Positions 1-9,880 of a DNA stretch of 9,880 nucleotides are shown here, piece by piece. The notes under the pieces are model-generated. The model saw only the letters and a list, made by a program, of their open reading frames with translations, searched no databases and was not told the DNA's origin. Position numbers and translations under genes: made by a program. Source of the stretch: a virus (lineage: Duplodnaviria > Heunggongvirae > Uroviricota > Caudoviricetes); the IMG/VR virus record IMGVR_UViG_2740892274_000003, one strand, 5' to 3'. Numbering within the stretch: position 1 is the first letter of the stretch; each line of letters begins with the position of its first letter.

Positions 1-183
1 CGCCACGGGAATATCTACGGCAGCAAGCCAGTAATGGGTTAAGTGATAACAGGTGTCTGGAAATATAGGGGCAAATCCAGCGTTCATCAGCCCCCGCATT
101 GCCGACAGGATCACAGACGGGGGGCGCAACTGGTTGTCGTTCAACTGGCCCAGCTACCGTTCTTGTATCAGAGGTGTGGCTGC

Positions 184-1575
184 ATGACAACACCAGTCTG
201 GCGTAATGATGACCTGGAAGGCGCTGTCATTGGCGCATTCTTTCTGCGTGGGGCAGATCATGAAGTGATGGATATTCTGATCACACTACCGGCGGACATT
301 TTTTCTGTACGAGCGTATCGGGATATCTACACAGGCATCTGCAGACAGGCCCGTGTTTCAGGAGTGATTGACCCCGTGCTGTTGTGTAATGAGATGCCGG
401 AACTTGCCCCGGTGATTACTGATACCGGGCGTAAAACCTGGGTGAAGTCTTCACTGGAGCACTATGTTGCAGCGTTGCGGCGCAATGCCGCACTGCGCGA
501 TGCAGAAAAAACACTGAATGAGGCGCTGCAGAAATTACGTGATGCGCATACCTGTGAAGCAGCTGAAGATGCCCTGAAGGATGCGCAGAACATGATGGTC
601 ACACTGTCGACAGGAAAGGGCGTCATTCAGCCGGTACATATTGATGATGTGCTTCCGGAAGTGGTTGAGCGTGTTGAATGCCGGAATCAGGGGCTGGAGA
701 AATCCAGGACGTTGATGACCGGTATTGATGAACTGGACGCAAAAACAGGCGGTATGGAGCCCGGAGACCTGGTATTCATTGCCGCCCGTCCTTCGATGGG
801 GAAAACCGAACTTGCGCTGGACATCATCGACAAGGTGACTGAGCAGGGGCATGGTGTGCTTCTGTTCACCATGGAGATGGCGAACATCCAGATTGGTGAA
901 CGTATGGTGTCTGCGGCTGGAGGGATGCCAGTATCACGCCTGAAATCTGTGGCTCACTTTGAAGATGAAGACTGGGCGCGTTTCTCACAAGGGGTGGGGC
1001 GGATGACCGGGCGCAATATCTGGATGGTGGACCAGGCGAACCTGACCATTGATGAGATATGCGCAACAACGAAACACCATCTGATTAAACATCCGGAAAC
1101 GGCGCTGGTGGTGGTTGATTATCTCGGGCTGATAAAAACCCGAACCACGGGGCGTCATGACCTTGCCGTGGGTGAAATCTCAAAGGGGCTTAAAGGCCTG
1201 GCAAAATCCGGTGGTTTTCCGTTGATTGCGCTGAGCCAGCTCTCCCGCGGTGTGGAGTCCAGACCCAATAAACGTCCCATGAACTCAGACCTGAAAAATT
1301 CCGGAGAAATAGAGGCGGATGCAGACATCATTCTGATGCTTTACAGGGATGAAGTGTACAACCCGGATACACAGGCTACAGGCATAGCAGAAATTAATAT
1401 CACGAAACAACGTAACGGTTCTCTGGGGACGATTTACCGGCGTTTTTATAACGGACATTTTCTGCCTGTGGACCAGGAAAGCGCACAGGTTCTTTCCACC
1501 CCAATGCGGCAGCCCCAGCCGCGCAGATACAGCAATACACGTACCGACAGCAGTAAGATGGAGCGTTTCTTTTGA
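184..1575 (+). CDS. DnaB-family replicative DNA helicase (phage replication module)
   Basis: Translation has a DnaB-like N-terminal domain and a RecA-like C-terminal domain with Walker A (AARPSMGKT) and the conserved KRPMNSDLKNSGEIEADADI / NITKQRNG region. ATG at 184 is preceded by GAGGTG 7 nt upstream. The in-frame GTG at 43 gives a 47-aa extension rich in R/H/C/W that looks like out-of-frame sequence, so 184 is preferred. Confidence 0.85.
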   Translation: MTTPVWRNDDLEGAVIGAFFLRGADHEVMDILITLPADIFSVRAYRDIYTGICRQARVSGVIDPVLLCNEMPELAPVITDTGRKTWVKSSLEHYVAALRRNAALRDAEKTLNEALQKLRDAHTCEAAEDALKDAQNMMVTLSTGKGVIQPVHIDDVLPEVVERVECRNQGLEKSRTLMTGIDELDAKTGGMEPGDLVFIAARPSMGKTELALDIIDKVTEQGHGVLLFTMEMANIQIGERMVSAAGGMPVSRLKSVAHFEDEDWARFSQGVGRMTGRNIWMVDQANLTIDEICATTKHHLIKHPETALVVVDYLGLIKTRTTGRHDLAVGEISKGLKGLAKSGGFPLIALSQLSRGVESRPNKRPMNSDLKNSGEIEADADIILMLYRDEVYNPDTQATGIAEINITKQRNGSLGTIYRRFYNGHFLPVDQESAQVLSTPMRQPQPRRYSNTRTDSSKMERFF

Positions 1576-1829
1576 ACAACCAGACAATGACTTTTACCTC
1601 TGAACAATTGCGTAAACACGCGCAGGAAATGTTGCGACAGGCGGAACAACTGGAAAAAACAGGTGTAACAAAAGATGCCATTCGTCGGGATATGGTGCCA
1701 GCGCTCAGGGAACTGATGCAGGCGAAACATCGCGCACAAAAAGCGGTGGATGAGCTCGTTGATTGTGTGGCAGAGCTGGAAACCAAAGTTGGAAAGTTTG
1801 AAAAAATGGTGCAGGAGGTGCTGCGCTGA
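1572..1829 (+). CDS. hypothetical small protein (85 aa, predicted helical), nin-region-like position
   Basis: ORF sits exactly between the helicase stop (1573-1575) and the rusA start (1829). Its stop overlaps the rusA ATG (TGATG). Start is either TTG 1572 (GGAG about 9 nt upstream) or ATG 1584. No recognisable family by eye. Confidence 0.5.
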   Translation: MNNQTMTFTSEQLRKHAQEMLRQAEQLEKTGVTKDAIRRDMVPALRELMQAKHRAQKAVDELVDCVAELETKVGKFEKMVQEVLR

Positions 1830-2200
1830 TGCGCCATGAGTTTATTTTACCTTATCCGCCGACGGTGAATACTTACTGGCGACGTCGTGGCAGCACATAT
1901 TTTGTATCAAAAGTTGGTGAGCGTTATCGCCGTGATGTGACGCTAATTGTTCGCCAGCAGCGGCTGAAATTAAACCTGTCCGGAAGGCTGGCGATAAAGA
2001 TTATTGCAGAGCCACCGGATAAGCGCCGTCGTGACCTGGACAATATCCTGAAAGCACCACTGGATGCGCTGACGCATGCCGGACTACTCATAGACGACGA
2101 GCAGTTTGATGAAATCAATATTGTGCGCGGTCAGCTCGTTCCTGGTGGGCGACTGGGCGTGAAGATTTATGAAATCACAGGTGATAACGATGGCGCGTGA
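1829..2200 (+). CDS. rusA: RusA-family Holliday junction resolvase
   Basis: 123 aa. N-terminal [11 protein letters not shown] and the central [29 protein letters not shown] match the RusA acidic catalytic motif as I recall it. Position between replication genes and Q is typical. Confidence 0.85.
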
Positions 2201-2576
2201 TATTCAGCAGGTTATGGAACGGTGGGGGGCTTGGGCTGCAAACACTCATGAAGATGTATCCTGGGCGTCGATCGCTGCTGGTTTTAAAGGGTTAATTCCG
2301 TCGAAAGTGAAATCACGCCCTCAGTGTTCTGATGATGATGCAATGATAATTTGTGGCTGTATGGCCCGGTTGAACAAGAAAAATCAGGATTTGCACGATT
2401 TGCTGGTGGATTATTACGTAGGTGGAATGACTTTTATGAGTCTGGCACGGAAACATGGGTGTTCGGATACCTGTATTGGCAAGCGCCTGCAGAAAGCGGA
2501 AGGGGTTATTGATGGCATGTTGATGATGCTTGATATCCGGCTGGAGATGGACAGATACGTAGAACGAATTATGTAG
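2190..2576 (+). CDS. phage late-gene antitermination protein Q, short QuuD/DLP12-like type
   Basis: 128 aa starting [17 protein letters not shown], with a Cys cluster (C-x9-C-x-C ... C-x3-C). Resembles the short Q family of DLP12-type prophages from memory. ATG 2190 has AGGTGA 8 nt upstream; the alternative ATG 2169 would overlap rusA more deeply. Located immediately upstream of a promoter/terminator region and the lysis genes. Confidence 0.7.
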
Positions 2577-2580
2577 GTGC

Positions 2581-2610
2581 TTGACCAGACACATTGTCCG
2601 GGGCTATATT
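2581..2610 (+). promoter_or_regulatory. candidate sigma70 late promoter (PR'-like): TTGACC-18-TATATT
   Basis: -35 TTGACC at 2581-2586 and -10 TATATT at 2605-2610, starting 5 nt after the Q stop. A small hairpin (CGCCAG/CTGGCG, 2618-2635) lies in the initial transcribed region. Confidence 0.35.
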
Positions 2611-2671
2611 CCTCACGCGCCAGCAAAATCTGGCGTCGGGATTGGAACCCCGGATAGAGACCGCGACAGAC

Positions 2672-2693
2672 ACACGCCGCGAGCGTGTTTTTT
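2672..2693 (+). terminator. candidate intrinsic terminator (tR'-like)
   Basis: Stem ACACGC (2672-2677) / GCGTGT (2683-2688), 5-nt loop, followed by TTTTT(A)TT at 2689-2696. Confidence 0.4.
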
Positions 2694-2821
2694 ATTGTCG
2701 TATGCACGCGCACATCTGAATTATGGTGGGGCGCATGGGGGAGCTGAAAAGCTCGCCGGTCGGTTTCCCGGTAGTTCCAACCCTGTGCGTCTCACCACCC
2801 GATGATTGGAACCTGACGGTG

Positions 2822-2850
2822 TTGACAGTTTCAGGTTTGCAGTTTACATT
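2822..2850 (+). promoter_or_regulatory. alternative candidate sigma70 promoter: TTGACA-17-TACATT
   Basis: Consensus -35 TTGACA at 2822-2827, 17-nt spacer, -10 TACATT at 2845-2850 with the key T, A and final T positions conserved. Could be the true PR' or a promoter for the downstream cargo gene. Confidence 0.3.
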
Positions 2851-2885
2851 TCCCCGCGGTGCTCAAAACACCTCGAAAGCGGTAT

Positions 2886-2913
2886 CCACACCCGATAGCC
2901 ATGTGGTTTTTTT
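2886..2913 (+). terminator. weak terminator-like hairpin plus T7 tract
   Basis: CCACA (2886-2890) / TGTGG (2902-2906) with an 11-nt loop, followed by TTTTTTT at 2907-2913. Confidence 0.25.
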
Positions 2914-3056
2914 GTGTCCAGAATTCTTGGTTTATGACCGGGTGTGCGGCTAATACAATACCAGCAATGGAAATACGCCCGCCGACTTTCGACGGTTTTG
3001 AGCGCCCGGTCACCCTCTCAAAAGGGGTAAATCAAAATATTCGAAAGGACATGTCT

Positions 3057-3620
3057 ATGAATCGCACGTCTATTGAAAAACTCCCGTCACTTACGCATAA
3101 CCATCTTCCTGTCATGACAACAGAGCTGCTGGCTGATTTGTACGGAACAGAGCGCCAGCGTTTGACAAACAATTTCAATCGAAACAAAGAACGGTTTATA
3201 GAAGGTAAACATTTTTTCCTGATAGAAGGTGATGCGTTACGAGAGTTGAAGAACGAAAACTCTTTAAGAGTTTCTGTGAAAATTGCCCGTAACGTTCGCT
3301 CCCTCATCCTCTGGACAGAACGTGGCGCAGCCCGTCACGCCAAAATGCTCGAAACCGATCAGGCGTGGGAAGTGTTCGAAAAACTGGAAGACTGTTATTT
3401 CAACCAGAAACAGCCACCAGCGGCACAAAACACATCTATCGAAAATGATGGATGCGCATTACTGAGCCACTTCGATAAACACGGTCAGGTTGAGTTCACG
3501 GAAAAGGTACCCGCCGATGCGATGGTATGTACTCTGGAACGGTTTAAATTTTATCTGGAGCAACACGGGTGGATCGTTGCCCGTAAAGAGCAACTGGTGG
3601 AGCGGTTGATGCGGTTTTAA
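3057..3620 (+). CDS. ORF6N-domain (KilA-N-related, predicted DNA-binding) protein with an unassigned C-terminal domain; late-region cargo
   Basis: N-terminal region LPVMTTELLADLYGTERQRLTNNFNRNKERFIEGKHFFL ... ILWTERGAARHAKML fits the ORF6N pattern (LYG..RLN..RN.ERF...F.L...WTE.GA) as I recall it. ATG 3057 has AAGGA 8 nt upstream; ATG 3051 is an alternative. The longer GTG-2859 ORF has an implausible N-terminal extension. The C-terminal 70 aa are not recognisable. Confidence 0.7.
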   Translation: MNRTSIEKLPSLTHNHLPVMTTELLADLYGTERQRLTNNFNRNKERFIEGKHFFLIEGDALRELKNENSLRVSVKIARNVRSLILWTERGAARHAKMLETDQAWEVFEKLEDCYFNQKQPPAAQNTSIENDGCALLSHFDKHGQVEFTEKVPADAMVCTLERFKFYLEQHGWIVARKEQLVERLMRF

Positions 3621-3696
3621 AAATTTTTTCCGAAAACTTTACGATCGTAAAAAGTTGAATATCCTGTTAAGAGTGGTTACTACGCCACACAGCTTA

Positions 3697-3721
3697 AACC
3701 CGCCGATGAGCGGGTTTTTTT
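3697..3721 (+). terminator. rho-independent terminator after the ORF6N gene
   Basis: Stem AACCCGC (3697-3703) / GCGGGTT (3710-3716), loop CGATGA, then a T-run through 3721. Confidence 0.6.
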
Positions 3722-3771
3722 ATACCTGAAAAACGGCACAGGACGTTAAACGTGCTGGTGGTCAGATGAGT

Positions 3772-3800
3772 TTGCAGATGTGATGACATATGGTTATTAT
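3772..3800 (+). promoter_or_regulatory. candidate promoter for the tRNA cluster: TTGCAG-17-TATTAT
   Basis: -35 TTGCAG at 3772-3777 and -10 TATTAT at 3795-3800; predicted start about 3 nt before the first tRNA at 3810. Confidence 0.35.
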
Positions 3801-3809
3801 TCTGCCTCC

Positions 3810-3886
3810 GGCCCTTTAGCTCAGTTGGTCAGAGCGAGCGACTCATAATCGCCAGGTCGCTGGTTCAAGTCCAGCAAGGGCCACCA
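3810..3886 (+). tRNA. tRNA with anticodon CAT, most like tRNA-Ile2 (ileX/ileZ type); automated tools would likely label it Met
   Basis: Cloverleaf traced by hand: acceptor GGCCCTT/AAGGGCC, anticodon loop CTCATAA, T-loop TTCAAGT, discriminator A, encoded CCA. Anticodon stem-loop GCGACTCATAATCGC resembles E. coli ileX from memory. Confidence 0.85.
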
Positions 3887-3887
3887 A

Positions 3888-3964
3888 CCACCACTAGCTC
3901 ATCCGGATAGAGCATCAACCTTCTAAGTTGACGGTGCGAGGTTCGAGTCCTCGGTGGTGGGCCA
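3888..3964 (+). tRNA. tRNA-Arg (anticodon TCT, reads AGA)
   Basis: Acceptor CCACCAC/GTGGTGG (unusual C1-G72), anticodon arm TCAAC-CTTCTAA-GTTGA, T-arm CGAGG-TTCGAGT-CCTCG, discriminator G, encoded CCA. Confidence 0.8.
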
Positions 3965-3966
3965 GC

Positions 3967-4042
<76 letters not shown>

Positions 4043-4045
4043 TAT

Positions 4046-4120
<75 letters not shown>

Positions 4121-4733
4121 GCGAGATTTGAGACGAAGGTTGTTATTTGCACTGACACAATATTGTGTGGGAATGTCTGACTCCTTACCATCTCCTGTTC
4201 TGTGATGTTGTTTTGTTGCAGTTCCAGTGCTCTTTTTTCAGCACCAGAATGGTGCATTGTCGGTCAGGTTACGTAGTGAACCTCTGGCAGGGGACTGATG
4301 ATTCATCATTCTGGTGTTGTAAATATCTCTTCGGACAACTTACAAAATATTCTAAGCAAACCCCGGGAACACACTCTTAACTGCCTTGGCTGGCGGTTTT
4401 TTGTACAGTGCTCGGTATGTGTGAGCTGGAAATCAGATTTTGCATGGACTGGAATCATGCTGTTATTTAGGGGCGAAGAACTGGCTTTTTCTTCCGCCTT
4501 CTCACCAGTAACGATTAGAAAAATAATGAAATGCCCCCCTCCGGGGAGGAGGACCGTAGAAAAAAGGACCCGCCAGCAAAAACATTGGGGATGAACAGCT
4601 TTCGCTACTCAGATTGCTGGCGGGTAAAGTTCCTCATGAATTAAGAATGCTACGCGATCTTTTTTAATGGAAATGAAAATTATTGTCAATTAGTCGTGCG
4701 TGTTTTTTCATACAATATTGGTAAAGGTGATTC

Positions 4734-5171: not shown

Positions 5172-5522
5172 NNNNNNNNNNNNNNNNNNNNNNNNNNNNN
5201 NNNNNNNNNNNNNNNNNNNNNNNNNNNNNNNNNNNNNNNNNNNNNNNNNNNNNNNNNNNNNNNNNNNNNNNNNNNNNNNNNNNNNNNNNNNNNNNNNNNN
5301 NNNNNNNNNNNNNNNNNNNNNNNNNNNNNNNNNNNNNNNNNNNNNNNNNNNNNNNNNNNNNNNNNNNNNNNNNNNNNNNNNNNNNNNNNNNNNNNNNNNN
5401 NNNNNNNNNNNNNNNNNNNNNNNNNNNNNNNNNNNNNNNNNNNNNNNNNNNNNNNNNNNNNNNNNNNNNNNNNNNNNNNNNNNNNNNNNNNNNNNNNNNN
5501 NNNNNNNNNNNNNNNNNNNNNN
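5172..5522. other. assembly gap / masked region (351 N)
   Basis: Continuous run of n. Removes the 3' two-thirds of the endolysin and the 5' parts of Rz and Rz1. Every six-frame ORF crossing it is an artefact. Confidence 0.99.
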
Positions 5523-5699
5523 GCAGTCTGTCAGTCAGTGCGTGAAGCCACCACCGCCTCCGGCGTGGATAATGCAACCAGCCCCCGACTGGCAGACACC
5601 GCTGAACGGGATTATTTCACCCTCAGAGAGCGGCTGATGACGATGCAGATGCAACTGGAAGGGGCACAGGAGTATATCCGCACTCAGTGCATTAAGTAG
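5523..5699 (+). CDS. Rz: Rz i-spanin, C-terminal 58 codons (start lies in the gap)
   Basis: AVCQSVREATTASGVDNATSPRLADTAERDYFTLRERLMTMQMQLEGAQEYIRTQCIK is near-identical to the lambda Rz C-terminus as I remember it. Confidence 0.8.
   Translation, partial: AVCQSVREATTASGVDNATSPRLADTAERDYFTLRERLMTMQMQLEGAQEYIRTQCIK
5524..5637 (+). CDS. Rz1: Rz1 o-spanin, C-terminal part, embedded in the +1 frame of Rz (start lies in the gap)
   Basis: QSVSQCVKPPPPPAWIMQPAPDWQTPLNGIISPSESG, proline-rich, matches the lambda Rz1 C-terminus from memory; nested inside Rz as expected. Confidence 0.75.
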   Translation, partial: QSVSQCVKPPPPPAWIMQPAPDWQTPLNGIISPSESG

Positions 5700-5741
5700 C
5701 CTTTTTATCGTGGTAAACATTTCGCAGGGTATGAGGTATTT

Positions 5742-6092
5742 ATGCCATCACTAATCCCACGTGCCTGCCGTAAGCGTGGATGTGCAGGTACAACCACAGA
5801 CAGTTCGGGTTACTGCGATAAACATCGCGGTGAAGGCTGGGTGCAGCACCAGCGCGGACTGAGCCGCCACCAGCGTGGCTATGGCTCAAAATGGACGGTG
5901 ATTCGTGCCCGTATTCTGAAGCGCGATAAAGGTCTGTGTCAGTTGTGTCTGCGTGTCGGTGTGGTGAGCGAGGCGAAAACCGTCGACCACATCATCCCGA
6001 AAGCGCATGGCGGAACAGACGCAGACAGCAACCTGCAGAGTCTGTGCTGGCCCTGCCATAAAGCGAAAACAGCGCGCGAACGAATCCGGTGA
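5742..6092 (+). CDS. HNH endonuclease (terminase-associated type)
   Basis: 116 aa with Cys pairs CRKRGC...C and CQLC, then DHIIPKAHGG...N...CWPCHKAKT (HNH motif). GAGGT sits 6 nt before the ATG. Lies directly upstream of the terminase genes, as in HK97-like cos phages. Confidence 0.85.
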   Translation: MPSLIPRACRKRGCAGTTTDSSGYCDKHRGEGWVQHQRGLSRHQRGYGSKWTVIRARILKRDKGLCQLCLRVGVVSEAKTVDHIIPKAHGGTDADSNLQSLCWPCHKAKTARERIR

Positions 6093-6110
6093 TAATTATT
6101 CTCACTTGTA

Positions 6111-6174
6111 GGGAGGGGCGGGGCAAATCCCTGTGACCTGACGTCTTCCGGACTGCCCGCCCCATCGTTTTTTT
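6111..6174 (+). promoter_or_regulatory. GC-rich inverted repeat plus T-tract in the HNH-TerS intergenic region; candidate terminator and/or cos-site element
   Basis: GGGGCGGGGCA (6115-6125) pairs with TGCCCGCCCC (6154-6163) with one bulged G, about 28-nt loop, followed by TTTTTTT at 6168-6174. Confidence 0.3.
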
Positions 6175-6213
6175 ATACCCGCGAAAAATGAAATTTAACC
6201 AGGAGTGCCGCAT

Positions 6214-6708
6214 ATGGCTGGAACGGCGGGGCGTTCCGGGCGTCGCCCCAAGCCAACGGCGCGCAAGGCGCTGGCCGGAAACCCCGGCAAGCGAGCCCTG
6301 AACAAAGATGAACCTGTTTTTACGCCCATCAAAGGTGTTGAGCCACCAGAGTGGTTCGCTGAAGAAGATCTCCCTCTCGCCACGATCATGTGGCAACTGA
6401 CAACCAAAGAACTCTGCGGTCAGGGCCTGCTGTGCGTGACTGACCTGGCGGTACTTGAGCGGTGGTGCGTGGCCTATGAGTTCTGGCGACGTGCCGTGAA
6501 AAATATTGCCATACAGGGCAACACCATCACCGGTGCAATGGGCGGCAGGGTCAAAAATCCGGAGCTGACCGCCAAAAAAGAACAGGAGTCCGAGATGAGC
6601 AGCACGGGGGCAATGCTCGGACTCGACCCCAGCAGCCGCCAGCGTCTGATTGGCCTGGCGGGGCAGAAGAAAGCCACTAACCCGTTTCTGAAAATTATCG
6701 AATCATGA
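6214..6708 (+). CDS. terminase small subunit (P27 family)
   Basis: [34 protein letters not shown] is the characteristic N-terminus of P27-family small terminases. AGGAG lies 8 nt before ATG 6214. Stop overlaps the TerL start (ATGA). Confidence 0.85.
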
Positions 6709-8438
6709 GCCGGAAATCTTACCCCAACGTAAATGCTGCAAATCAGTATGCCCGGGATGTCGTGCGCGGAAAGATTGTTGCCTGCCAGTTTGTGATTCAG
6801 GCCTGCCAGCGCCATCTTGATGACCTGATGGCGGAAAAAAGTAAGTCGTTTCGTTACCGCTTCGACAAGGACCTGGCTGAACGGGCCGCGAAATTTATTC
6901 AGCTGTTGCCGCACACCAAGGGGGAGTGGGCATTCAAACGGATGCCCATCACGCTGGAGCCGTGGCAGCTATTTGTGATCTGCTGTGCGTTTGGCTGGGT
7001 CAATAAAGGCACCCGGTTGCGCCGCTTCCGGGAGGTGTACACCGAAATCCCCCGTAAGAACGGCAAATCAGCAATCTCTGCCGGTGTTGCCCTGTATTGT
7101 TTTGCCTGTGATAACGAGTTTGGCGCGGAAGTGTATTCCGGTGCCACGACAGAGAAACAGGCGTGGGAAGTCTTTCGCCCGGCGCGACTGATGTGTAAAC
7201 GCACACCCATGCTGACGGAAGCGTTCGGGATTGAGGTTAACGCCTCAAACATGAACCGTCCGGAGGATGGCGCGCGGTTTGAACCGCTGATCGGCAACCC
7301 AGGTGATGGTTCATCACCCCACTGTGCCGTGGTTGATGAATATCACGAGCATGCCACCGATGCGCTTTATACCACAATGCTTACCGGGATGGGGGCGCGA
7401 CGTCAGCCACTGATGTGGGCCATCACCACCGCCGGGTACAACATTGAGGGGCCGTGCTACGACAAGCGGCGGGAAGTCATCGAGATGCTCAACGGCTCGG
7501 TGCCTAACGATGAACTGTTCGGGATCATCTATACCGTTGATGAAGGTGACGACTGGACCGGCCCGCAGGTGCTGGAAAAAGCCAATCCAAATATTGGCGT
7601 GTCGGTTTATCGCGAATTTTTGTTAAGTCAGCAGCAGCGTGCGAAAAATAACGCCCGTCTGGCAAACGTCTTTAAAACAAAACACCTCAATATCTGGGTG
7701 TCGGCGCGTTCGGCGTATTTCAACTTGGTGAGCTGGCAGAGCTGCGAGGATAAATCACTGACCCTTGAGCAGTTCGAGGGGCAGCCGTGCATTCTGGCCT
7801 TTGACCTGGCGCGTAAGCTGGATATGAACAGCATGGCGCGACTTTATACCCGCGAGATTGACGGTAAAACGCATTACTACAGTGTGGCCCCGCGTTTCTG
7901 GGTACCGTATGACACGGTGTACAGCGTCGAGAAAAATGAAGATCGACGGACAGCCGAACGCTTTCAGAAATGGGTGGAAATGGGCGTTCTGACCGTTACC
8001 GATGGTGCGGAGGTGGATTATCGCTACATCCTCGAGGAGGCCAAAGCGGCGAACAAAATCAGCCCGGTCAGTGAGTCACCCATCGACCCCTTCGGGGCGA
8101 CCGGGTTGTCACATGACCTTGCTGATGAAGACCTGAATCCCGTCACTATCGTCCAGAACTTCACCAATATGTCCGATCCGATGAAAGAGCTGGAAGCAGC
8201 GATTGAATCGGGACGTTTTCATCATGACGGCAATCCCATCATGACCTGGTGTATCGGCAACGTGGTCGGCAAAAACATGCCGGGTAACGATGATGTGGTG
8301 AAACCCGTCAAAGAGCAGGCGGAAAACAAAATCGATGGTGCAGTTGCGCTGATTATGGCGGTTGGCAGAGCCATGCTGTACGAGAAAGAAGACACGCTGT
8401 CTGACCACATTGAGTCCTACGGGATCCGCTCGCTTTAA
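6705..8438 (+). CDS. terminase large subunit (HK97-like)
   Basis: Uninterrupted 577-aa ORF with ATPase-like N-terminal region (EIPRKNGKS) and nuclease-like C-terminal region. Translationally coupled to TerS. Confidence 0.95.
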
Positions 8439-8449
8439 CTGAGGTAATT

Positions 8450-8632
8450 ATGATCATGCTGATTCTCGCGCCTCTGGTGGGCGTGCTGGGTGCGCTTTTG
8501 CTGGCGTATGGTGCCTGGCTGATTTATCCCCCGGCGGGTTTTGTTGTTGCCGGGGCGCTGTGCCTGTTCTGGTCGTGGCTGGTGGCGCGATATCTCGACC
8601 GTACACGGCAGTCTGTCGGCGGAGGTAAATAG
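8450..8632 (+). CDS. small hydrophobic protein (60 aa, two predicted transmembrane helices)
   Basis: [49 protein letters not shown] then a basic tail. GAGGT precedes ATG 8450. Its TAG stop overlaps the portal GTG start (TAGTG) and its last codons contain the portal Shine-Dalgarno GGAGGT. Confidence 0.5.
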
Positions 8633-9788
8633 TGTTCTTTTCGGGATTATTTCAACGAAAAAGCGATGTGCCGGTGACCACGCCAGCAGAACTGCTGATG
8701 CTATCGGGCTGTCATACGACACCTATACCGGAAAGCGGATCAGTAGCCAGCGGGCCATGCGCCTGACGGCGGTCTATTCTTGCGTCAGGGTGCTGGCAGA
8801 GTCTGTTGGTATGCTGCCCTGCAGTCTCTACAAAATCAGCGGTACCCTGAAAACACGGGCGGTGGATGAACGACTGCATAAGTTGGTTTCGGCAAAACCT
8901 AATGGCTACATGACACCGCAGGAATTCTGGGAGCTGGTTATTGTCTGCCTGTGTCTACGGGGGAATTTTTACGCCTACAAGGTAAAGGCACTGGGAGAAG
9001 TGGTGGAGCTTCTTCCGATAGATCCGGGCTGTGTGGAACCGAAGCTGAACAGCCAGTGGCAGCCGGTTTATCAGGTGACGTTTCCGGATGGTTCCGTGGA
9101 TGTGTTGACCCAGAATGAAATCTGGCATGTGCGCACCCTGACGCTGGATGGACTTGTCGGGCTGAATCCCATTGCGTATGCGCGTGAGGCCATTTCACTG
9201 GCAGCGGCAACCGAGGAGCACGGTGCCAGGTTGTTTAGTAATGGTGCGGTGACATCCGGTGTGTTGCGTACGGAACAAAAGCTCACGCCGGATGCTTACG
9301 AGCGTCTGAAGAAAGATTTTGAGGAGTGTCACACGGGGCTTGGCAATGCTCACCGCCCGATGATTCTGGAAATGGGGCTGGACTGGAAGTCGATGGCGCT
9401 GAACGCCGAGGACAGTCAGTTCCTGGAAACCCGCAAGTTTCAGCTGGAAGAAATCTGTCGTCTGTTCCGGGTGCCGTTGCACATGGTGCAGAACACCGAT
9501 CGCGCCACCTTCAACAATATCGAAGAGCTGGGGCTGGGATTTATCAACTATTCACTGGTGCCGTATCTGACCCGCATCGAACAGCGGATCAACACCGGAC
9601 TGGTACGAAAAAGTAAGCAGGGCGTTTATTACGCCAAATTTAACGCCGGGGCGTTACTGCGCGGGGATATGAAGTCCCGTTTTGAAGCCTACGCCACCGG
9701 GATCAACTGGGGAATTTACTCTTCCAATGACTGCCGCGACCTGGAAGATATGAATCCGCGTCCCGGTGGTGTAATGCCGATCAGTTAA
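8632..9788 (+). CDS. phage portal protein, HK97 family; apparent frame discontinuity near 8705-8720 (sequencing error or pseudogene)
   Basis: GTG 8632 with GGAGGT 5 nt upstream opens a frame reading [26 protein letters not shown] and stopping at 8764-8766. The -1 frame reads YTGKRISSQRAMRLTAVYSCVRVLAESVGMLP and continues as a portal-like sequence to 9788. Restoring one base near 8710-8714 joins them. Alternative intact start: ATG 8757. Confidence 0.75.
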
Positions 9789-9821
9789 GGATCAGTTGAC
9801 CGATCCAGTGGCTGTGTAAGA

Positions 9822-9856
9822 ATCCGGAAACGCTCACTTGTTTCCGGATTTTTTTA
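9822..9856 (+). terminator. terminator-like hairpin plus T7 tract after the portal gene
   Basis: Stem ATCCGGAAAC (9822-9831) / GTTTCCGGAT (9840-9849), 8-nt loop, TTTTTTT at 9850-9856, immediately followed by ATG 9857. Confidence 0.4.
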
Positions 9857-9880
9857 TGCACATTGGACAGGCTCTTGATC

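Follow-up and report, generated by a model that had tools for sequence, protein, structure and literature searches.

The window, by which we mean the whole 9,880-nucleotide stretch analysed here, is with a probability of roughly 93% part of a Shigella sonnei draft assembly that covers a decayed prophage remnant of the phiP27/ST64B/SfIV type, and its portal gene is a pseudogene carrying two lesions: the loss of a single G in codon 22, beside position 8694, and an IS4 element that replaces the 3' end of the gene from position 9772 onwards. The portal remnant is an ordinary dead gene, the outcome of routine pseudogenisation in an IS-riddled phiP27-like remnant. The first-pass annotation had described a portal gene split by a frame discontinuity within 8632–8766, and reading frame coordinates, tblastn and alignments all bear this out. 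It had offered two explanations, a sequencing error in a draft or a genuine inactivating mutation, and the evidence below supports the second. The IS4 lesion had escaped it.

The window spans the late region of a lambdoid, HK97-type prophage. Upstream of the portal it contains the following features.

1–79: an IS end, abutting phage DNA at the left edge
184–1575: a DnaB-type helicase of 463 amino acids, probably complete
3' of the helicase in the listed gene order: RusA, then a Q-type antiterminator
before the tRNA cluster: an ORF6N-domain protein
3810–4120: four tRNA genes, between the ORF6N-domain gene and the lysis genes
around the 351-N gap, which interrupts them: holin, lysozyme and Rz genes
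5742–6092: an HNH endonuclease (PF01844)
6205–6708: the small terminase (PF05119)
6705–8438, plus strand: the large terminase, intact, 577 amino acids (PF03354 and PF20441)
8450–8632, plus strand: a YmfR-like membrane-protein gene of 60 amino acids, between large terminase and portal

The replication module is also cut by an IS (window 1–79). An IS3-family element adjoins the phage DNA at base 80, with upstream transposase genes carrying HTH_Tnp_1 and rve domains, and positions 1–79 look like the right end of an IS2. Truncation of the helicase by this left-edge element was considered and rejected, as phage homology begins at base 80, within the gene that precedes the helicase. The phage-borne tRNA cluster consists of Met-CAT, Arg-TCT, Thr-TGT and Gly-TCC; the region between the tRNAs and the holin gene is otherwise non-coding apart from a 98-amino-acid ORF at 4298–4594, which is a gene call in some S. 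sonnei genomes and has no Pfam match. The run of Ns at 5172–5522 had been taken as the sign of a draft, rightly: it is a true scaffold gap of mis-estimated size, in which 626 bp of complete S. sonnei genomes are represented by 351 N, and near-identical lysis genes of other lambdoid prophages are its probable cause. What is missing there is the 3' part of the lysozyme gene together with most of the Rz/spanin gene. Because the gap is real, the window is a draft; the frameshift is nevertheless not a draft artefact.

The portal locus itself is made up of the following segments.

8632–8694, plus strand: portal 5' segment, codons 1–21 in the native frame (tblastn frame 1, 95% identity)
8692–8697, plus strand: site of the 1-bp deletion, CTG-CTG in the window against CTGGCG, CTGGCA or CTGGCT in relatives
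8695–8766, plus strand: out-of-frame tail of the 44-amino-acid product, LMLSGCHTTPIPESGSVASGPCA, ending at TGA 8764–8766
8697–9771, plus strand: rest of the portal, codons 23–380 of the restored gene, in the -1 frame
8757–9788, plus strand: ORF called by the pipeline, 343 amino acids, from ATG 8757 to TAA 9786–9788, its last 17 nt being IS4
9760–9771, plus strand: 12-bp IS4 target, GTCCCGGTGGTG
9772–9880, plus strand: left end of IS4, with the terminal inverted repeat from 9772; the first 109 bp of the element lie in the window

GTG 8632 opens a frame of 44 codons that ends at TGA 8764–8766. This start overlaps the stop of the small upstream gene (TAGTG), is preceded by GGAGG at 7–8 nt, and occupies the same position as the annotated portal starts of phiP27, E. 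coli A36, E. coli C311 and SfIV. The possibility had been raised that homologous portals begin at the equivalent of ATG 8757 and lack the upstream N-terminal segment; instead, they have that segment and start at the equivalent of GTG 8632. The portal sequence lies in the -1 frame, which stays open from 8541 to 9788 and reads ...DAIGLSYDTYTGKRISSQRAMRLTAVYSC..., and tblastn places the phiP27 portal residues after 21, up to 380, in frame 3, ending at 9770. The same search finds no portal homology for 8695–8766 in the frame of the 44-amino-acid product.

The missing base is one G of CTGGC, the GG lying beside window base 8694 in codon 22, where the window has GAACTG-CTGATG and the relatives have GAGCTGGCGGATG. 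DNA alignments with phiP27, SfIV, ST64B and three E. coli prophages open a single one-base gap in the window, GAACT-GCTGATGCT against GAGCTGGCGGATGCT or a close variant in those six relatives, and every E. coli genome match listed by megablast is one base longer than the query. Once the G is restored, GAA CTG GCT GAT GCT encodes ELADA, the same residues as in most relatives, two nearby nucleotide differences turn synonymous, and the reading ...PAEL-ADAIGLSYDTYTGK... is identical to that of the relatives. The earlier proposal that one base is missing therefore stands, but the site it gave, 8710–8714, does not, as the real site is about 17 nt upstream; its junction "LLMLSGC-x-YDTYTGK" is wrong by the same ~17 nt, with LMLSGC already out of frame, and the true junction is ...TTPAEL-A-DAIGLSYDTYTGK....

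Outside S. sonnei, all 14 relatives (phiP27, SfIV, ST64B, E. coli prophages, and metagenome and IMG/VR contigs) have a single continuous frame. Two contigs, L020 from a metagenome and L021 from IMG/VR, have the restored haplotype, GAACTGGCTGATGCT, letter for letter, and six intact portals of 413 amino acids that carry the extra G (L028–L033) read AELADAIGLSY. The restored gene runs to 9771 over 380 codons with zero stops, and the deletion beside 8694 is the sole frame lesion within them. Compared with phiP27, 68 codon differences are synonymous and 10 are non-synonymous, which points to a portal gene that was under purifying selection until recently.

Since a -1 shift could in principle correct a 1-nt deletion, and the frames share about 70 nt ahead of the frame-1 stop, we considered that programmed -1 ribosomal frameshifting or transcriptional slippage might bypass the deletion, with the full-length N-terminus still being made. 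Such recoding is unsupported, because 8632–8766 holds zero X XXY YYZ heptamers in any phase, because its homopolymer runs are just TTTT at 8638 and AAAAA at 8658, both upstream of the deletion, and because none of the 14 relatives changes frame there, so that no conserved recoding site exists here. IS4 moreover cuts the gene as well. We regard recoding as having next to no chance of being correct, and read the deletion as an inactivating frameshift.

By family, the gene is well placed. The restored protein matches the Pfam Phage_portal profile (PF04860) at 359.2 bits against a cut-off of 39.1, over profile positions 2–321 of 321, and the domain corresponds to restored residues 47–373, with both lesions outside it. 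The phiP27 orthologue matches the HK97 portal structures 8cez/8fql with E = 1.5e-53 over residues 17–387, and 6te8/6tba, also of the HK97 family, at about 4e-20. Synteny agrees on the upstream side, where the large terminase precedes the portal; next come the protease and capsid genes in relatives, and IS4 and chromosomal genes at this locus. Profile, structural matches and upstream gene order together indicate that the gene is an HK97-family portal by descent, but it is a pseudogene because a single uninterrupted frame of ~413 codons is absent, being broken by the deletion beside 8694 and by IS4 at 9772.

The question of whether the missing base is real was addressed through its distribution. 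A sequencing or assembly error, with the gene really intact in this strain, is suggested by the draft status of the window with its 351-N scaffold gap and by single-base indels being a common assembly fault. However, the 343-amino-acid product starting at ATG 8757, which depends on the frameshift, occurs in its exact form in 1695 blocks of a public assembly collection, of which 46 have contigs longer than 1 Mb. At least 1000 public contigs carry it, in every case under the name 'portal protein [Shigella sonnei]'. All ten loci fetched by way of this product (L007–L016) carry the identical deleted allele, and seven are 100% identical to the window over 5523–9880, although this look-up detects frameshifted copies alone and does not give the fraction of carriers among S. 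sonnei genomes. Two less biased checks were added, namely retrieval based on the helicase and an IMG/VR pattern scan admitting either allele. The three loci retrieved via the helicase, independently of portal status (L017–L019), all have the deletion, so that each of the 13 S. sonnei chromosomes or large contigs retrieved has the same deleted allele. In the IMG/VR scan, six contigs are at least 99.9% identical to the window and all six have the deletion, while the intact allele is limited to relatives no more than 95% identical. Neither the loci fetched nor the IMG/VR scan includes an S. sonnei-type copy that has the G, and among complete E. coli genomes the identity at the deletion site does not exceed 95.4%. 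A pattern scan of the GTDB species representatives, of which S. sonnei is evidently not one, matched neither allele.

The 13 other S. sonnei assemblies with the deletion include complete chromosomes from different laboratories and a hybrid assembly; among the 13 are HE616528 (S. sonnei 53G, lineage II; PMC5447701), CP022457 (S. sonnei 2015C-3566; PMC6456863) and CP037997 (strain FC1653, from a hybrid assembly study; PMC6836418). The site itself is a mere GG dinucleotide with no long homopolymer. Given this, a draft error is hardly credible, and the mutation is genuine. Three chromosome-size contigs (L010, L013 and L016) also have their terminase, helicase and some chromosomal genes (recN, nadK, bamE) split into two ORFs each, and differ from the window by scattered 1-bp gaps. 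Whereas the portal deletion is common to all assemblies, these differences look like indel noise from assembly.

The second lesion lies at the other end of the gene. The portal was described earlier as continuing through 9788, and the frame is indeed open that far, but homology to the portals of phiP27 and E. coli stops at 9771 and positions 9772–9880 are IS4, with window 9767–9880 matching IS4 InsG records at 100%. IS4 supplies the last five codons and the stop (TAA, 9786–9788), so that the portal frame ends ...PRPGG-VMPIS* and the natural tail, DVYLTPMNMTT..., of about 33 C-terminal residues, is missing. In L015, where the whole element can be seen, IS4 is 1426 bp long (element proper 11016–12441), its inverted-repeat arms lie at 11014–11033 and 12424–12443, each including one flanking base pair, and it encodes a transposase of 442 amino acids with Nterm_IS4/DDE_Tnp_1 domains (PF13006/PF01609); in other words, terminal inverted repeats enclose a ~1.4-kb element with an IS4-type DDE transposase.

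IS4 duplicates 11–13 bp of its target upon insertion. The 12-bp target GTCCCGGTGGTG is repeated to the right of IS4 solely in one S. sonnei draft scaffold, L027, where CTGACTGGCATTAGTCCCGGTGGTGATGTC joins the right end of IS4 to the duplicated target; an IMG/VR search for the missing 3' end of the gene found a right junction with the duplication in L027 alone. The duplication is absent from the right flank in the complete genomes L007, L008, L012, L015 and L018. What follows IS4 differs between genomes: in L012, L015 and L018 it is the raiA-pheA side of the chromosome, and in the other complete genomes a second IS, followed by bamE-recN. Complete genomes have chromosomal DNA beyond IS4, and at this locus the portal has no protease, capsid or tail genes next to it. 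The absent duplication is consistent with later recombination between IS4 copies, and the differing right flanks indicate that IS4 took part in subsequent rearrangement or deletion.

Scaffold L027 (IMGVR_UViG_2663762996_000003; protein CST26286.1) runs from the right IS4 end through the 12-bp target into the portal 3' end and then the protease, capsid and tail genes. This right junction identifies a simple IS4 insertion as the original event, and at least one strain may keep the downstream protease, capsid and tail module. A look-up with the L027 protease returned just intact relatives, 91–93% identical to the window and not of the S. sonnei type, with 413-amino-acid portals. Positions 1–4600 of the scaffold hold, in order, a frameshifted portal, IS4 from position 69, the duplicated target and the portal 3' end a second time. 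The frameshifted portal of L027 reads to its natural stop without IS4, and we considered this as proof that the frameshift predates IS4. The idea was dropped, as the scaffold has a single-N join at 2819 and a 386-bp overlap with the sequence right of IS4 (3 mismatches, one at the junction), and the read-through product of 371 amino acids occurs on one contig only. L027 holds either two prophage copies or a gap-closing artefact. Because the IS4-less read-through may be such an artefact, L027 is not used for ordering the two lesions.

Taken together, the evidence gives the following picture. Loss of the G beside 8694 in codon 22 is the first lesion in the reading direction: ribosomes starting at the strong GGAGG-GTG site would add 23 out-of-frame residues to 21 authentic ones and stop at TGA 8764–8766. 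Insertion of IS4 at 9771/9772, an independent lesion, removed the last ~33 codons and supplied a new stop. IS4 later served as a recombination point, and it is for this reason that the portal fragment in complete genomes is seen joined to chromosomal DNA, not to head and tail genes. We infer that no functional portal is made and that the lesions reflect neutral decay of a remnant which IS expansion had already left non-inducible. The earlier suggestion that the mutation makes the prophage defective for packaging is therefore moot, as IS4 cuts the gene at 9772 and no morphogenesis genes follow at the locus. Regardless of the frameshift, a functional prophage is excluded because of the IS4 truncation, the missing downstream genes and the IS at 1–79.

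One further reading concerns the shortened portal that could start at ATG 8757. This ATG lies 5 nt upstream of the stop of the 44-amino-acid frame (ATGCGCCTGA), an arrangement that could in principle permit weak termination-reinitiation, and the product would lack residues 1–42 and the C-terminal tail and keep the whole Pfam portal domain; some expression of a portal shortened at both ends is thus conceivable. Such a protein (residues 43–380 plus VMPIS) might retain some role, for example through interaction with another P27-like prophage or as one element of a terminase/portal module that has been retained. Most complete genomes keep the HNH gene and both terminase genes intact, and further phiP27-like prophage regions have been reported in S. 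sonnei 75/02 (PMC5447701). Against this, ATG 8757 lacks a good Shine-Dalgarno sequence in front of it, residues 17–42 align to the solved HK97 portal and so belong to the conserved protein, and S. sonnei is a young clone in which intact neighbouring genes need no selection. A functional shortened portal is unlikely on this evidence, and re-initiation yielding a product with some role is, in our view, very unlikely to be the explanation. That the remnant as a whole, with HNH, both terminases and the shortened portal, has been kept as interfering with or used by other P27-like phages would be a slimmer prospect still. Neutral decay of a two-lesion pseudogene remains the reading we favour.

Frameshifts and IS disruption of prophage genes are routine in IS-rich Shigella genomes, and prophage erosion in them is well established. 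The locus occurs in thousands of public S. sonnei genomes, where it already bears the annotation of a short or partial portal protein. The value of the present analysis is mainly one of annotation hygiene. The frameshift is a real, lineage-fixed lesion that should not be "corrected" in assemblies, and the annotation of the gene should read pseudogene with two lesions. Similarly, a phage-like score for the region should not lead prophage-prediction tools to count it as inducible. Combined with the portal-IS4 junction, the deletion allele could serve as a candidate S. sonnei-associated marker.

Among known systems, the closest portal by nucleotide identity is L38 of the Stx2e phage phiP27 (NP_543090.1), at 93.7% to the window over 8440–9771, followed by those of the Shigella phages SfIV, SfII and SfI and of the Salmonella phage ST64B at 88–89% over the same interval; at the protein level, 10 of 380 residues differ between the phiP27 portal and the restored window protein. 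These phages have the same order of genes as the window, from HNH through small terminase, large terminase and the 60-amino-acid membrane protein to the portal, and the same GTG portal start overlapping the upstream stop. The order from HNH to portal is also seen in many E. coli prophages, and the YmfR-like gene is at the same place in phiP27, ST64B and E. coli prophages. Relative to the phage portals, the window lacks one G in codon 22 and has its last ~33 codons replaced by IS4, and, unlike in the phages, no protease and capsid genes come after the portal at this locus. The IS4 part matches known IS4 (InsG) at 100%, but complete S. sonnei genomes lack the duplicated target on its right flank. 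With the HK97 portal gp3 (8cez/8fql) the likeness is one of fold and family at low sequence identity, and the window copy differs in being a pseudogene. E. coli annotations name the 60-amino-acid gene upstream of these portals ymfR, and the e14 cryptic prophage of E. coli K-12 presumably offers a parallel, with a portal pseudogene next to ymfR. The e14 element appears to belong to the same prophage family and likewise carries a decayed portal in a cryptic element, while its lesions and its host are different from those described here.
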